Shown here: positions 1,270 through 6,488 of the stretch, in pieces
Numbering within the stretch: position 1 is the first letter of the stretch
Layout: each line of letters starts with the position of its first letter
IMG/VR virus record: IMGVR_UViG_2740892372_000012
Strand: one strand, 5' to 3'
DNA: 6,494 nt
From: a virus
Taxonomy: Duplodnaviria > Heunggongvirae > Uroviricota > Caudoviricetes
The notes under the pieces: model-generated
Told to the model about the DNA's origin: nothing
What the model saw: the letters and a program-made list of their open reading frames with translations, nothing else
Database searches by the model: none
Made by a program: the position numbers and the translations under genes

Positions 1270-1425
1270 TTACTCCTCAGGTTCGTAAGCTGTGAAGACA
1301 GCGACCTCCGTCTGGCCGGTTCGGATTCGTACCTCGCAGAGGTCTTTCCTCGTTACCAGTGCCGTCACTATGACGGTTAAACAGATGACGATCAGGGCGA
1401 TTAACATCGCCTTTTGCTGCTTCAT
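1270..1425 (-). CDS. hokD: Hok/Gef family type I toxin (51 aa, small membrane toxin)
   Basis: Translation MKQQKAMLIALIVICLTVIVTALVTRKDLCEVRIRTGQTEVAVFTAYEPEE matches the Hok/Gef family signature (hydrophobic helix, conserved Cys, C-terminal YE motif) and, from memory, the E. coli HokD/RelF sequence. AAGGAG SD 9 nt upstream of ATG 1423-1425. The ORF track lists a 70-aa in-frame extension from ATG 1480-1482, which has its own GAGG SD 8 nt upstream. Confidence 0.88.
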   Translation of the reverse strand: MKQQKAMLIALIVICLTVIVTALVTRKDLCEVRIRTGQTEVAVFTAYEPEE

Positions 1426-1546
1426 AGCCTGCTTCTCCTTGCCTTTCGGCACGTAAGAGGCTAACCTAGATTTGCCGTTCATAGATTGAGCCTCAGATTA
1501 ATGTTAAGCGTCTTGCAGGACGCGTAATGTTAACTGGGGCTTTTCT

Positions 1547-1582: not shown

Positions 1583-2029
1583 CCTCAAGCACCCGCAGCT
1601 ATTCTACTTAACTTCCCATTACCTCGCCAATATGAAATCGGTCAGAAAGACAGACGTCCCATAAGGACAACAACGGAAAAAGAGATTTTGCTTGATGCTA
1701 TTTACCTCTGCACCATGAAGTTGCGCCAAAATCCCAGTGGTGATAACAGGAATTTGGTTGTTGGTGATTGGGGAAAGAAGTACGTTAGACTGTGGGTTAG
1801 TTCATTGACATGATAGTTACCTGCCTTCAATTTCCTAAGCAAGCGATGTAAACGATAATCAATATCAAATGTATTGACAGGTAAAATAATAACGATGTAC
1901 CTTTGCTGATAACATATATCAGTCTTAAATCATAATGGAGGTAGATAAAATAACTAAACACACACAACAAATTTTTTATCAGTGACATAGCATATCTTAA
2001 GCATCCTTTAATGCTCATGGGGAGAACGC

Positions 2030-2803
2030 ATGACTAAACATATGGACATTCATTGTCAAACACGCATATTTAACTCAATTAACCATGACACCAAATATAA
2101 AATATGTATTTTTACTCCAAAAAACATTAAAAAAAATAATGCAACTCTTTATATACTTGATGGGAATAGTGCCAACAATTACATTTCTGATATTCTGCCT
2201 GTTATTGATGCACTACCCAATCCACCAGTGTTAGTTACACTTGGTTATGAATCTTGGAATAACCTTAGCATTCATCGCCGTGCTTACGATTATACTCCTG
2301 ATGGTGAAAATGCTATTGTTGATAACTCTAAACCAGCATGGATCTACTTTACTGGTGGAGGAAGCCAGTCTTTCCGAGAATTATTACTAACTCAGATCAT
2401 GCCATGGGTTAGTACTATTGCTCCGAACAGTTCCAGAATCGGTATATGGGGGCACTCGCTAGGTGCTATTTTTGTGCTTGATTGCTTAAAAAATAATTCA
2501 TGCTTTAACTATTATTATATATCTGCACCATCACTTCTATGGCAGAATGAAAGAATCATCAAGATAATTAAAGATGATATATCAGAATCAAAGCACACTA
2601 AAAGTATATGCTTGCTTAACGGAAATCTTAGCCTTGATTACTCCGCATCTTTATATCCTGAAGCCATCAAAGCGGAATCTGTTTTGAGAAATATTTTGAC
2701 AGAAAAATACAGTAATTTTTCTATTGTACAATTTCCAGAGCTCAATCATCAGGAGACTTTCTCTGCTGCACTCTGGAATAGCATTATTCATTTCAGCATA
2801 TAA
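2030..2803 (+). CDS. Alpha/beta-hydrolase fold esterase (esterase D / enterochelin-esterase-like family), no signal peptide; AT-rich cargo (moron) gene
   Basis: 257-aa ORF with GGGGAG SD 5 nt upstream of ATG 2030. Nucleophile elbow GHSLG (WGHSLGAIF), upstream LYILDGNS motif resembling the YLLDG motif of the putative-esterase family, and a His near the C-terminus (ELNHQETF) consistent with a Ser-Asp-His triad. Codon usage is strongly AT-biased compared with the flanking phage genes. Confidence 0.8.
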   Translation: MTKHMDIHCQTRIFNSINHDTKYKICIFTPKNIKKNNATLYILDGNSANNYISDILPVIDALPNPPVLVTLGYESWNNLSIHRRAYDYTPDGENAIVDNSKPAWIYFTGGGSQSFRELLLTQIMPWVSTIAPNSSRIGIWGHSLGAIFVLDCLKNNSCFNYYYISAPSLLWQNERIIKIIKDDISESKHTKSICLLNGNLSLDYSASLYPEAIKAESVLRNILTEKYSNFSIVQFPELNHQETFSAALWNSIIHFSI

Positions 2804-3154
2804 CAGAAAATATGTAATCACTTTATCAATCTAGCTAACATAACTGATATCAATCCTAATGGGTCTTTGAACATATTAAAAGATAACTTCTCATTTGTAC
2901 ATTGTTGTGTTCTTAGACCCATTTCAAAAATACTATTTTTTAGATACTAATAATTACATCCATTTAGCTATCTTCTAAATACTCCTCTCAGTTTCTTCAT
3001 TGGAGCTGATTCAACTCCGGCAATGCATACTAGGATCATTTTATAAGCATACAAACAACATCCAGACTGTGAATTATTGCTATTCATTTTCTATGTATCT
3101 GCTCTTTTCCCATCCACTGAAACACCAGAATCCAAAGGTTTCATGTTATTTTCA

Positions 3155-3568
3155 CTATTCCATCATTACTCCTGTGTAAAATATCAAAACTCGCTGCATC
3201 ACTTCACTGTTACGGCACTCACTACAAATTATGTTCAATTGCCTGTCATAGCGGCGTATTTCTCCGTCTGGTAATGACCAGATAAGGTCAGGATCAACCA
3301 CAACCGGTTTCTTCAGTTTTGCCCTCGATAGTTTTTTGCGGGCGTTTTGCCAGTCCTTACGAGCCTGTTCAGATGGGAATAACCCGTAACCAGAGTTGTA
3401 TACATCGCCACTGGCAACCAGCTCTCTGGCAAGAACGCTCATCAGATATCTTGTCGCACCTGTCTTGGCTTCCAGTTGCCGTAACGTCTCGCGCCCACTC
3501 CGGCGTACTAGCTCAACAACCTGCCCTTTAATTTTTTCCCGCTCTTCCTGTGTAAATACTTTTGCCAT
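3155..3568 (-). CDS. Hypothetical phage protein (137 aa), last gene of the replication-module operon
   Basis: ATG at 3566-3568 preceded by GGAGG (complement of 3574-3578) with a 5-nt spacer; stop TAG at 3155-3157. Start lies 15 nt after the upstream gene's stop. The ORF-track start (TTG 3583) is a less likely 5-codon extension. No recognisable catalytic motif. Confidence 0.7.
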   Translation of the reverse strand: MAKVFTQEEREKIKGQVVELVRRSGRETLRQLEAKTGATRYLMSVLARELVASGDVYNSGYGLFPSEQARKDWQNARKKLSRAKLKKPVVVDPDLIWSLPDGEIRRYDRQLNIICSECRNSEVMQRVLIFYTGVMME

Positions 3569-3583
3569 AAGCGCCTCCGGCAA

Positions 3584-4354
3584 TCACTTTTCCGATACAA
3601 CACGGCGGGAAGAATCAGTAATCTGTCGAACAATATCCCGGTGCTTGTTCAGCTCCCGCAGCGCGGCGCAGACTCGCTCCCACTTCTGAACATCACTTTT
3701 CGCCCTGCGCAGCGCCAGGTTTGCCCTGCGAAGGGACGGAAAAATCAGCTCATCTGCTTGCGTTTCGGTAAACGATGGCAACGGCTGCACAATGTCCGCC
3801 ACAGTTTCTGTTTTAATTTCTTCCTGTGTTGCGGCTTCCCGGACTGGTAACGCAGCACCTGCTGGCTGAGGAAAGGCCTTACCATCACTTTCCGTTACCA
3901 GCGCGGCTTTCGGCTCTGCTGGTAAATTATCGCCCGGCATGCAGTAACGAAATTTACCGTTCTGATTAACGCGTGCCAGCCGCCCCGTTGCGGTTACCAC
4001 CGCCAGCGTGGAAGCAACCTTGCGAGTACTGACACCGAACTTACCCGCCAGTTCCTCACACGTTTTAGCCCCATCCTGACCGATAAACTCAATCATCATG
4101 TCTGCGGTAACTTTTTGTTCGACCTCCCCGGTCAGCATATCCTGTGCTTCAGATTTTACTGGCCGCTCTTCGGTTACCCGGGATTCACCTTCGCCAGCCA
4201 GAAACCAGGTGTGACCAGTTTTATCAACGACGCCATTTCTTTTGAGTTCCCACAGCTCGTTGACAGCCTCTTCACGACTGATTCCAAGGCGAGCTGCCAC
4301 CACATGTGAAGAGGCTTTTTTCAGTGCTTTCAGTGCGTCAGATACGGTTTCCAT
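3584..4354 (-). CDS. Hypothetical phage protein (256 aa) with two N-terminal regions resembling winged-helix/HTH segments
   Basis: ATG 4352-4354 with GGAGG (complement of 4363-4367) 8 nt upstream; stop TGA 3584-3586. Starts 21 nt downstream of the DnaC-like stop. Two similar segments (SDALKALKKASSHVVAARLGISREEAVNELWELKRNGVVDKTG and GAKTCEELAGKFGVSTRKVASTLAVVTATGRLARVNQNGK) suggest tandem wHTH-like domains; function unknown. Confidence 0.75.
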   Translation of the reverse strand: METVSDALKALKKASSHVVAARLGISREEAVNELWELKRNGVVDKTGHTWFLAGEGESRVTEERPVKSEAQDMLTGEVEQKVTADMMIEFIGQDGAKTCEELAGKFGVSTRKVASTLAVVTATGRLARVNQNGKFRYCMPGDNLPAEPKAALVTESDGKAFPQPAGAALPVREAATQEEIKTETVADIVQPLPSFTETQADELIFPSLRRANLALRRAKSDVQKWERVCAALRELNKHRDIVRQITDSSRRVVSEK

Positions 4355-4375
4355 TAAAATTTCCTCCGGACAAAA

Positions 4376-5122
4376 TTACTTCACAACCCTCATATTGCTG
4401 ACATTTGGACGCCAGCTATCCCAGTTAAACGTCACCCATCGACCACCGTTCATGGTCATGCGGTCCATAATCCTCTCACCAAGAAGCGTACTCATTGCGG
4501 CATGATTCAGGTTTGTTAACATCCCGACACTGCACAGTGATGCTGTCCGGCGATCAATTATCTGGTGTAATACCACCTGCTCGTTTTTCGTCTCCCGCTG
4601 AACGCCTATTTCATCCAGGACCAGCAAATCAACACTGCAAAGCTCCTGTAAAAATTTTTCCCCGGATTTGCCGTTGTCGTAGCTGTCATGCAACACGCTC
4701 ATGACATCAGACACGGTGACGATAATCACGCTGCGCCCCTTCGCCATCAGCCGGTTACCCATCGCCGCTGCAAGGTGATTTTTCCCGGTGCCGGTTTTAC
4801 CGCTGAACACAAAATTCGTGCACCCGGTCATCAGTTCGTCAGCTATGGATTTGGCCTGGCTCAGCGCGTATTTTTGCCCGTCGTTCTGCACCTGATAATT
4901 CGCAAACGAGCATTTGCTGTGCAGAGGCTGGATGCCCGAACGATTCAGGATTTTTTCCACCCGCAACTGGTGATTCTGGCGGTTAATCTCCTCGCTGCGT
5001 TTTCGTCCTTCAGCAAGTTGCCATTCCCGCCACTCCTCCACCGTCCGGTACGGTGGAACCGACGCCGGTGGTGCAAGTCTGCGAATACGTTCAAGAACCC
5101 CGGCTGCCGCAATGTTTTTCAT
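4376..5122 (-). CDS. DnaC-like replicative helicase loader (AAA+ ATPase), prophage paralog of DnaC
   Basis: 248-aa ORF with Walker A FVFSGKTGTGKNHLAAAM and Walker B DLLVLDEIG, colinear over its full length with recalled E. coli DnaC (RSGIxPLH, CSFxNY, GMLTN, LLGERxMDRM, FNWDSWR). ATG 5120-5122 lies 6 nt after the initiator stop, with GGGGGTGA upstream (translational coupling). Confidence 0.9.
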   Translation of the reverse strand: MKNIAAAGVLERIRRLAPPASVPPYRTVEEWREWQLAEGRKRSEEINRQNHQLRVEKILNRSGIQPLHSKCSFANYQVQNDGQKYALSQAKSIADELMTGCTNFVFSGKTGTGKNHLAAAMGNRLMAKGRSVIIVTVSDVMSVLHDSYDNGKSGEKFLQELCSVDLLVLDEIGVQRETKNEQVVLHQIIDRRTASLCSVGMLTNLNHAAMSTLLGERIMDRMTMNGGRWVTFNWDSWRPNVSNMRVVK

Positions 5123-5128
5123 GCCACA

Positions 5129-6223
5129 TCACCCCCTGAATCCCGGCGGAATTTCGGTATCCGGTTCAGAAATATGATTCACACAACGCTGGTTGTTCGT
5201 GCCGCTTACCGGGAGCAACCAGGGGTTTTCAAAATTCCGGTCCGGCCCAAAAAACGTCGTCGCTCGCTGAACAAATTCCGTTCCCGCTTTCCCGGTCGCC
5301 GCCAGGTATCTCGCGTAACGCCTCACACCATCCAGCATGGTCTCTGGTGGCACCCCCTCGCGCAATCTGGCCTTCCAGGCACTGAATGCGGATTTCTTCG
5401 GGTTTGCTCCGGCACGCAACGGGTACTCCCGCCAGACCTGTTCGAACACATCCGGATAATCCACTCGTCCCACAGACAGCCCGGTGTTTTCCGGGACTAC
5501 CCGATCGGCTTCCCGCTGAATGGCGGAATCGGCTTCAGGCTGCTGCAGTTGGTGTGATTGCTTCGGCCTTGCGGTCATCACCTGCTGCACAGCGCCCGAA
5601 TCGGCTTTCAGCGCATACGCTGAATCGGCTTCCGGTGTCGTGCCTGCTGGCTGACCAGGATTGACGGTCTGAACATCCCCTGCCTGGTTCGTGGCGTTTT
5701 TTACGCCATGGACCATAGTGTTTTGATCTTCTTGATCTGTATCTTTATCTGTATCTTTATCTGTATCTTTATCTGTATCTTTATCTGTCGTGACTCGTCG
5801 TGACATGTGCATGACATTTCGTGACGCGCCGTGACAATCGCCATTTTGTTCCCGCTTTCTTTCCCTCTCTCGCTGCGCCCTCTTGCGCTCTGCAGGAGAT
5901 TTTGCGGTTTGCGAAATATTGCCGTTGTCCTCTTTAAGCACCTGGCGTTTTTCCCATCCAGTGATTAAATCACCATCAAGTACCCGCCCCTGCATCGTCT
6001 GCAAAATTGAATCAATTACCTCTTCTGTCACGTCGAGCGCACTTGCCAAATCTTCTGTCGTGACATCAATGTGACCTCGCGTGACATTTCGTGACGCGCT
6101 CACCAGGAGGTGGATATACACTGCCATCACTGTTGCAATTGGCTGCCCTGACACCCTGGCAATTGTTCGCCACTTAGGGTCATTTGGCATGTCATGCCAT
6201 AATCTGAGCCAGGCGTTAGCCAT
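5129..6223 (-). CDS. Phage replication initiation protein: N-terminal DNA-binding (replisome-organizer-like) domain, (DKDT)n linker, C-terminal DnaT-like (primosomal protein I-like) domain
   Basis: C-terminus ...NHISEPDTEIPPGFRG matches the recalled C-terminus of E. coli DnaT (...SEPDSQIPPGFRG). Gene order DnaT-like then DnaC-like mirrors the host dnaTC operon. Start taken as ATG 6221-6223 (GAGG SD, 5-nt spacer) rather than the GTG at 6229 used in the ORF track. Stop TGA 5129-5131. Confidence 0.85.
   Translation of the reverse strand: MANAWLRLWHDMPNDPKWRTIARVSGQPIATVMAVYIHLLVSASRNVTRGHIDVTTEDLASALDVTEEVIDSILQTMQGRVLDGDLITGWEKRQVLKEDNGNISQTAKSPAERKRAQRERERKREQNGDCHGASRNVMHMSRRVTTDKDTDKDTDKDTDKDTDQEDQNTMVHGVKNATNQAGDVQTVNPGQPAGTTPEADSAYALKADSGAVQQVMTARPKQSHQLQQPEADSAIQREADRVVPENTGLSVGRVDYPDVFEQVWREYPLRAGANPKKSAFSAWKARLREGVPPETMLDGVRRYARYLAATGKAGTEFVQRATTFFGPDRNFENPWLLPVSGTNNQRCVNHISEPDTEIPPGFRG
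5735..5788. repeat. Perfect tandem repeat, 12-nt unit atctttatctgt x4 plus a partial copy, in frame inside the initiator gene (encodes DKDT repeats)
   Basis: Plus 5741-5788 is four exact copies of atctttatctgt, preceded by a partial unit at 5735-5740. The region is AT-rich, with two GATC sites just upstream (5724-5727, 5734-5737). Confidence 0.9.
5788..5835. repeat. Cluster of five phased (G/A)TGAC direct repeats at about 10-bp spacing (putative iterons, cluster 1)
   Basis: tcGTGAC at 5788-5794, 5798-5804, 5819-5825; gcATGAC at 5809-5815; ccGTGAC at 5829-5835. Spacing 10/11/10/10 bp, about one helical turn. The motif falls in different codon phases of the overlapping initiator ORF, so it is conserved at the DNA level, not the peptide level. 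Confidence 0.6.
6058..6095. repeat. Second cluster of four phased GTGAC direct repeats (putative iterons, cluster 2)
   Basis: GTGAC at 6060-6064, 6071-6075, 6081-6085, 6091-6095. The 18-mer tgacatttcgtgacgcgc is identical at 5812-5829 and 6082-6099, and both clusters are preceded by the same ctgtcgtgac 10-mer (5785-5794, 6055-6064). Confidence 0.6.
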
Positions 6224-6488
6224 ACTCACCTCTTCTGATACCGAATCTTTTTACTCACGAGTTGCCGGAAGCGATTCGATATGGCTATTATCACTCAATG
6301 CACTGCCACAGCATTTCCTGCCGGGCCACCACGGTTCATCTGATTGAAACCGGCGATTGCCACTGCGACAAAATCATCAGCGTCTCTCACCAGTCGCTCC
6401 CGCGTCTCCACCAGCTCCCGAAAATAAGCTGAACTGAACCGCCCCGGGAATCCTGGAGACTAAACTTCCTGAGAAAGAGGTAAACAGG
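6224..6488. promoter_or_regulatory. Divergent intergenic control region between the leftward replication operon and a rightward gene starting at 6489
   Basis: No convincing ORF on either strand over about 265 bp. Plus-strand AAGAGG (6475-6480) followed 8 nt later by ATG 6489, with the gene running off the window. Candidate minus-strand -10 GATAAT (complement of 6287-6292) upstream of the initiator. Promoter elements are not confidently resolved. Confidence 0.35.

Follow-up and report, generated by a model that had tools for sequence, protein, structure and literature searches.

The DNA analyzed here, referred to as the window, is a stretch of 6,494 nucleotides (nt) from a virus of the Caudoviricetes (IMG/VR virus record IMGVR_UViG_2740892372_000012). 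On its minus strand a phage replication module is followed by two genes, encoding proteins of 256 and 137 amino acids (aa), which are the subject of this work. The genes and the features identified in them are the following (AF2, AlphaFold2; SD, Shine-Dalgarno sequence; pLDDT, predicted local distance difference test):

5129-6229, minus strand: replication initiator / replisome organiser, 366 aa, first gene of the module
4376-5122, minus strand: DnaC-like helicase loader (YdaV type), 248 aa, directly 5' of the 256-aa gene
4363-4367, minus strand: SD (GGAGG) of the 256-aa gene, 8 nt 5' of the ATG
3584-4354, minus strand: 256-aa gene of the DUF1627 / YdaW family, ATG at 4354, TGA at 3584-3586
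4190-4354, minus strand: winged-helix domain 1 (WH1), residues 1-55 of the 256-aa protein (AF2, alignment)
3935-4108, minus strand: winged-helix domain 2 (WH2), residues 83-140, candidate nucleic-acid-binding domain (AF2 and charge)
3587-3796, minus strand: C-terminal module, residues 187-256, with an (I/L)PxF(T) motif and then a basic helical hairpin
3574-3578, minus strand: SD (GGAGG) of the 137-aa gene, 5 nt 5' of the ATG
3155-3568, minus strand: 137-aa DUF977 / Ren-like gene, ATG at 3568, stop codon included, at 3155
3377-3550, minus strand: winged helix-turn-helix, residues 7-64 of the 137-aa protein (AF2 pLDDT about 90)
3176-3235, minus strand: C-terminal motif NIICSECRNSEVMQRVLIFY, with its counterpart NLVFKECRQSAAMKRVLAVY in lambda Ren (BLASTP, hhalign, alignment)

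The first-pass annotation, made from the letters of the sequence, had described two open reading frames (ORFs) with GGAGG SD sequences and short gaps after the DnaC-like gene, and this was borne out: 21 nt lie between the TAA of the loader gene (4376-4378) and the ATG of the 256-aa gene, and 15 nt between the TGA of the latter and the ATG of the 137-aa gene. The program-made ORF list gives an upstream TTG start for this second gene (142 aa); the RefSeq entry and the position of the SD favour the 137-aa product. The same annotation called the two genes translationally coupled. Of that claim the operonic arrangement with the replication genes stands, but strict coupling was an overstatement, because there is no overlap between the genes and an SD precedes each of them. 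The minus strand from the loader to the end of the gene pair (3155-5122) showed neither promoter-like nor terminator-like consensus matches. Among DUF1627 homologues, 63 distinct upstream contexts were compared; an SD-like motif was present in 61 of them, and the distance to the upstream gene ranged from -1 to 42 nt, with a mode of 17. Both genes are under purifying selection: the ratio of nonsynonymous to synonymous substitution rates (dN/dS) is 0.26-0.48 in the 256-aa gene, and in the 137-aa gene it is 0.11-0.22.

The two ORFs share a reading frame across a single TGA (window 3568-3586), and two fused DUF1627-DUF977 proteins exist in the databases as single-member entries, one with the stop replaced by Gly (P0002) and the other frameshifted (P0004). 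This frame relation is kept in phage vB_EcoS-673R7 and lost in POCJ13, and one divergent clade has a 14-nt overlap of the genes, which therefore cannot be in frame there. Programmed read-through of the TGA was rejected for this lack of conservation in POCJ13 and in divergent clades, and the in-frame fusion of the pair is probably due to chance or to sequencing error.

Both genes are real, conserved and members of already catalogued families. The DNA between positions 3000 and 4500 was 100% identical to prophages of enterohaemorrhagic Escherichia coli (EHEC), including those of O26:H11 and O145:H28, and the whole window matched O145 chromosomes at 99.8%. Identical RefSeq proteins are WP_000451007.1 (DUF1627 domain-containing protein) and WP_001151233.1 (DUF977 family protein). 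The first-pass annotation could not assign a family and proposed profile searches; in these, both proteins scored far above the Pfam gathering scores. The 256-aa protein matched PF07789 (DUF1627; E 9.7e-99, 328 bits against a gathering score of 28.1) with residues 91-245 on profile positions 1-155 of 155, and phrog_630, of unknown function, over its full length (E 4.5e-133). The 137-aa protein matched PF06163 (DUF977; E 3.7e-27, 95.5 bits against 22.1) with residues 1-133 on positions 1-131 of 134, and phrog_142, the "Ren-like exclusion protein" (E 4.4e-45), which PHROG places in its moron/host-takeover category. Sequence searches of the PDB with both proteins gave no significant match, and NCBIfam assigned neither of them to a family, all of its regulator matches being below the cut-offs. 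In the literature no paper characterising DUF1627 or DUF977 was found, nor was any functional work found under "LygF", a name given to DUF977 in one phage record; DUF977 has been described as a winged helix that is fused in some cases to Fic domains (Kinch et al., 2009).

The architecture suggested for the 256-aa protein, two tandem winged helices and a charged C-terminal region, agreed with an AlphaFold2 model built on an alignment of 62 sequences, with an alignment of 36 divergent family members and with family mean charges. WH1 (residues 1-52, pLDDT >90) is modelled with helices at 4-11, 16-23 and 27-39 and beta structure at 43-52. It is the best-conserved part of the family, with L34 and W50 invariant in the 36-member alignment, and it is acidic to neutral, with a family mean charge of -1.8 for the domain and -1.5 for its recognition helix. 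A disordered linker of no notable charge (residues 56-79, pLDDT <50) leads to WH2 (residues 84-138, pLDDT about 87), which is basic (family mean charge +3.8, with +2.6 in helix 3 and +2.6 in the wing) and gave weak matches to HTH_11, PafC and FeoC. A second disordered linker (residues 145-182, pLDDT <50) has a family mean charge of -4.7. In the C-terminal module, the (I/L)PxF(T) motif at residues about 190-197 has a pLDDT of 50-56 (mean of 10-residue blocks) and lies in a region, 187-207, with a family mean charge of -1.5; the two helices that follow (208-237 and 239-255, pLDDT about 90, net charge +7 over residues 208-255, family mean charge +6.8) form a hairpin of the type EIRRTK..L..LE..R.A.R.L.KH in the alignments. 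A profile of this module found no sequence relative in the PDB. The 256-aa protein is thus modelled as a flexible "beads on a string" molecule, in which WH1 (acidic) and WH2 (basic) are succeeded by a disordered stretch of acidic character and a strongly basic C-terminal hairpin.

The best Foldseek matches of the 256-aa model in the PDB were tandem winged-helix proteins (DIP2311, ScpB, ESCRT-II and the C-terminus of SelB; E 2e-4 to 3e-3), with TM-scores of 0.2-0.3 and no sequence relationship, so that they represent a resemblance of fold only; ScpB, ESCRT-II and SelB have no counterpart of the long disordered linkers and basic C-terminal hairpin of DUF1627. WH2 also matched phrog_142 (E 2.7e-6), with no stretch passing alone, and hhalign against Ren/DUF977 gave probabilities of 18-29%, which corresponds to a weak, generic winged-helix similarity.

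DUF1627 is a small family; a set of 1.84 billion proteins contains 155 representatives of it at the 50% identity level. It occurs in only 24 deposited phage genomes and 14 records labelled as plasmids. All the named members seen belong to Enterobacterales (Escherichia, Salmonella, Enterobacter, Citrobacter, Serratia and Pantoea), and one matching phage record is assigned to an Actinobacillus host. Among a set of relatives (P0328, P0355, P0241 and P0257), some have a third winged-helix domain. In others a deletion has joined an initiator N-terminus to the C-terminal module of DUF1627, which points to prophage decay. Domain fusions were considered as functional clues and discarded, since they turned out to be such prophage deletion fusions or extra winged-helix copies.

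Comparison with E. coli K-12 identified YdaW of the Rac prophage (b1361, 186 aa) as the ortholog of the 256-aa protein, with 55% identity over residues 1-154. The K-12 gene lies 22 nt after ydaV, in the same position as in the window. The K-12 protein is a truncated form, whose sequence departs from that of the window protein at the deletion in Rac; its acidic linker, IPSFT motif and basic C-terminal hairpin are missing, and Rac has also lost the DUF977 gene. The name "YdaW family protein" is already used by some phage annotators, and both families and the Ren-like label (for instance in the POCJ13 annotation) are likewise public. What is new here is the YdaW orthology and the recognition of K-12 YdaW as a truncated member of DUF1627, not of DUF977, together with the tested homology between Ren and DUF977, confident domain models, and a gene slot that does not depend on which type of replication module precedes it, as detailed below.

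The short helix-turn-helix-like N-terminus noted earlier in the 137-aa protein corresponds in the AF2 model to a confidently predicted winged helix, with helices at 7-24, 29-36 and 40-53 and a beta wing. Beyond it the model shows a helix at 67-86 and an ill-defined C-terminus, the C-terminal half being of low confidence. Several sequence comparisons indicate that this protein is a distant homologue of lambda Ren, a 96-aa protein encoded directly after P. Ren itself matches phrog_142 (E 1.6e-41), the PHROG of the 137-aa protein; both have an N-terminal winged helix and the C-terminal motif ECRxSxxMxRVLxxY, and both are encoded at the end of a replication operon. BLASTP between the two detected the C-terminal motif alone (E 2e-5, with 50% identity in a stretch of 20 residues). 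When 49 DUF977-like sequences from the loci collected were combined into a profile, this aligned with Ren at 94% probability in hhalign (E 1.5e-7), and the alignment spans Ren residues 3-95. Pairwise identity is only about 25%, and the 137-aa protein differs from Ren in an insertion of about 40 residues (helix 67-86 and a linker), which comes after the winged helix and before the C-terminal motif. A scan for loci related to lambda Ren, made for a wider alignment, returned copies 99-100% identical and no others. Foldseek searches of the PDB with the 137-aa model gave generic winged-helix matches of the MarR, GntR and ArsR types (E >0.01) and nothing else; the link between Ren and DUF977 rests on sequence profiles and synteny, because fold searches did not single out Ren.

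Two alleles of DUF977 were observed (in loci L019, L024 and L055, among others, as compared with the window), with shared N- and C-termini and a strongly different winged-helix core and following linker; both occur with either type of loader. The pattern suggests a cassette-like exchange of the putative binding surface.

The genomic context was examined at 12 loci of species genomes and on two sets of 80 viral contigs each, one near-identical and the other divergent. In these loci, about 170, DUF1627 was always found directly 3' of the last gene of the replication module, which was a YdaV-type DnaC-like loader in 121 cases, a lambda P-like protein in 37, an HTH_36 initiator in nine and a DnaT-domain initiator in one. 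The same DUF1627 allele (at least 80% identical) pairs with DnaC-type and P-type loaders, and also with two DUF977 alleles. This mosaicism argues against a loader-specific partnership: DUF1627 recombines freely with the replication genes and therefore occupies a "ren slot" and is not the partner of one particular loader. A DUF977/Ren-like gene followed DUF1627 in 77 of the 80 close loci, in about 21 of the 80 divergent ones and in 1 of 11 species-genome loci; elsewhere the genes 3' of DUF1627 were typical cargo of the nin region (a methyltransferase, Ead/Ea22, an AAA_21 ATPase).

In Gifsy-2 and a Klebsiella phage, a DUF977 gene lies directly after the DnaC-like gene without DUF1627 in front, as ren does after P. 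These proteins (STM1016 in Gifsy-2) match the full length of Pfam DUF977 (E 3.9e-58), are shorter than the window protein (111-115 aa) and about 28-30% identical to it, and fall in phrog_2391, "DNA binding protein", which overlaps phrog_142 in the N-terminal winged helix alone. The window is unlike lambda in that the DUF1627 gene separates the Ren-like gene from the loader, and in that the loader is DnaC-like and not P. There is, then, a conserved "ren slot" that usually holds a gene of the Ren/DUF977 type, preceded by DUF1627 in one group of Enterobacterales phages. The homology to Ren and the position of DUF1627 confirmed the first-pass placement of the pair where lambdoid phages carry ren. 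The pair was found in inducible phages, for example Shigella phage POCJ13, 75/02 Stx and Rac-SA53. In one soil metagenome-assembled genome (locus L006, 6663-6992) the order is reversed, with a Ren-like gene between the DnaC-like gene and DUF1627.

For these genes it is established that they lie in an early operon, belong to the families named, encode proteins of the domain architecture described, have a mosaic distribution and evolve under purifying selection. As to what they do, our tentative preference, to which we give a probability of roughly 40%, is that both encode Ren-type early accessory or counter-exclusion proteins of a lambdoid (Rac/Sakai-type) prophage. The pair would form the tail of an early rightward replication operon (initiator, DnaC-like loader, DUF1627/YdaW, DUF977/Ren-like), and proteins encoded there would as a consequence be made early after induction or infection and not in the quiescent lysogen. 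They would be non-essential helpers, as lambda Ren is, rather than core replication factors or classical repressors, and would bind a nucleoprotein or protein target in the replication phase. Such binding may shield the developing phage from exclusion or abortive infection by Rex-type or retron-type systems that belong to the host or to co-resident prophages. Contacts with nucleic acid may be made by WH2, by the C-terminal helix and by the winged helix of DUF977, with WH1 and the Ren motif as candidates for protein contacts. An accessory character is suggested by the optional presence of DUF977 after DUF1627 in close as compared with divergent loci. In work on lambda, ren is co-transcribed with O and P (Hayes et al.), and Thomason et al. 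observed two-hybrid interactions of Rex proteins with O and Ren. Besides the genetics of lambda Ren, a hint of a connection with defence systems comes from work on RcaT, the toxin of retron-Sen2, in which ydaW was among the prophage "blocker" genes in a TIC/TAC overexpression screen, a result repeated in a review; as K-12 YdaW is truncated, this blocking concerns the two winged-helix domains only.

Several observations weigh against this interpretation. The YdaW of the RcaT screen was the truncated K-12 protein, overexpressed, and its effect may be indirect, because the DNA-binding regulators dicC and mhpR also scored. No rexAB was seen in 19.5 kb around the identical O26 locus. Searches of PADLOC-DB gave two marginal winged-helix matches for DUF1627 (Csa3 and CARF HTH, E about 1e-3), with no stretch passing alone, and no match for DUF977. 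Foldseek matches were generic or tandem winged helices only, and in BFVD those of the 137-aa model were generic (E >0.01), with lambda Ren outside the top 50. In addition, each of the 11 phage records with a closely similar loader (at least 79% identity) also carries DUF1627, which does not look "accessory" in that clade, and the near-universal presence of a Ren/DUF977-type gene right after the loader would fit a replication-linked role equally well.

Such a role is the alternative that survives best, although we regard it as rather unlikely. The winged helices and the basic C-terminal helix would bind the origin, replication intermediates or the DnaB-loader complex and would tune initiation, for example through helicase release, a switch in replication mode or coupling to transcription. 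The pair constantly ends the replication module, its gaps being short and its SD sequences conserved, and this speaks for such a role, as do the occurrence of a Ren/DUF977-type gene after the loader in lambda, Gifsy-2, Klebsiella and E. coli phages and the 11 records in which a close YdaV-type loader is accompanied by DUF1627. Thomason et al. describe ren as "likely involved in DNA replication". Tandem winged-helix folds such as that of ScpB are moreover found in chromosome-associated proteins. Against this, one DUF1627 allele is combined with unrelated loaders (IstB-type and lambda P), and DUF1627 is also found with single-protein initiators; about 75% of the divergent DUF1627 loci lack DUF977, and there are no iteron-like repeats near the pair. 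The idea that DUF1627 is a paralogue of the initiator DNA-binding domain was rejected (hhalign probability of 2% with the window initiator), and no Rep-family match was found in Pfam at E <=1. A further argument against a replication function is that lambda is considered able to grow without ren. In the work of Hayes et al., P and initiation at ori-lambda, and not ren, were what P-lethality and the replicative killing caused by a lambda fragment required.

It is unlikely, and somewhat more so, that the two proteins are conventional winged-helix transcription factors of the MarR/ArsR kind, regulating delayed-early or nin-region genes of the phage or genes of the host. Weak similarities to MarR, Crp-like HTH, MntR and ArsR appear in Pfam, PHROG and NCBIfam, MarR and GntR repressors are the top Foldseek matches of DUF977, YdaW is listed among the predicted E. 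coli transcription factors in the literature, and both WH2 and the DUF977 winged helix are basic. However, every regulator match is below its family threshold, the fold matches are restricted to the winged-helix core, and dimerisation helices of the MarR type are not predicted. The acidic "recognition" helix of WH1 and the lack of palindromes or operator-like repeats flanking the genes do not fit such a function either, and long disordered acidic linkers with a coiled-coil-like tail are atypical of small repressors.

Within counter-exclusion, the pair might constitute a two-protein counter-defence module in which YdaW neutralises abortive-infection toxin effectors, RcaT for example, and the Ren-like partner masks the replication-stage trigger of Rex-type systems. 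We hold this to be quite doubtful. If true, it would provide a mechanism for the Ren phenotype after more than 40 years, and would help to explain how EHEC strains with many co-resident lambdoid/Stx prophages tolerate each other's induction. Least probable of all is a defence or superinfection-exclusion pair expressed in the lysogen and shielding the host from other phages, an explanation that draws on the PHROG label and its moron/host-takeover category, and on defence-like cargo 3' of DUF1627 in other phages (an AAA_21/AbiEii-type ATPase, a methyltransferase), but that is at odds with the absence of a promoter-like site of their own, with the lack of a credible PADLOC match and with the location of the genes in a lytic early operon that is silenced by the repressor in the lysogen. 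Lambda Ren is reported (Toothman and Herskowitz, 1980) to confer resistance to Rex exclusion rather than to cause exclusion, and the PHROG label is misleading for that reason.

The two genes are very common: DNA similar to a 1.5-kb query that included part of the DnaC-like gene was present in 4610 of 5426 complete E. coli genomes, and 75/02 Stx and phiSTEC1589-Stx1c are examples of inducible, Stx-converting phages that carry them. The advance is incremental, given that the families, the Ren-like label and the YdaW name pre-exist in public annotation. The truncation of K-12 YdaW, the homology between DUF977 and Ren, and the independence of the "ren slot" from the replication module offer a better-defined target for experiments on counter-defence or replication control.

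With respect to the neighbouring genes, the loader matches NCBIfam PRK12377 (E 1.5e-153) and phrog_50 and is 80% identical to K-12 YdaV. The initiator matches phrog_3729 (E 3.6e-251) and is annotated as "phage replisome organizer" in O145. Inside its gene, five tandem 12-nt units (TCTTTATCTGTA) at 5730-5789 encode a DKDT repeat, and they are flanked by GTGAC..CGTGACA repeats (repeat regions 5730-5837 and 6071-6099). By analogy with lambda, these are probably origin iterons embedded in an O-like gene; binding-site-like or iteron-like repeats were confined to the initiator gene, with none near the gene pair. The C-terminus of the initiator (5129-5200, ..PDTEIPPGFRG) is common to K-12 YdaU, the rest of both proteins being unrelated, and also matches the extreme C-terminus of DnaT (NCBIfam NF002770, E 1.6e-3). 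This peptide possibly recruits the DnaC-like loader.

Downstream of the pair, a low-GC island (29-39%) at about 1650-3170 lies on the opposite strand. Its junction falls within the last codons of DUF977 and gives the window protein an unusual C-terminus (..IFYTGVMME vs ..AFYQGN..). The island contains an ORF at 2030-2803 (plus strand) for a 257-aa, alpha/beta-hydrolase-like protein, with a match to phrog_8493 at E 7e-185 and to Pfam Esterase at just E 0.005; it is intact in the window, and its counterpart in O26:H11 11368 is split by IS1203. Further on there is a hokD-type toxin ORF at 1270-1482 (minus strand), and Rfam recognises sok at 1420-1594 (107 bits). A strong intrinsic terminator occupies 1184-1201, in the same region as a sub-threshold isrK-like match at 1180-1261 (27 bits vs a gathering score of 50).

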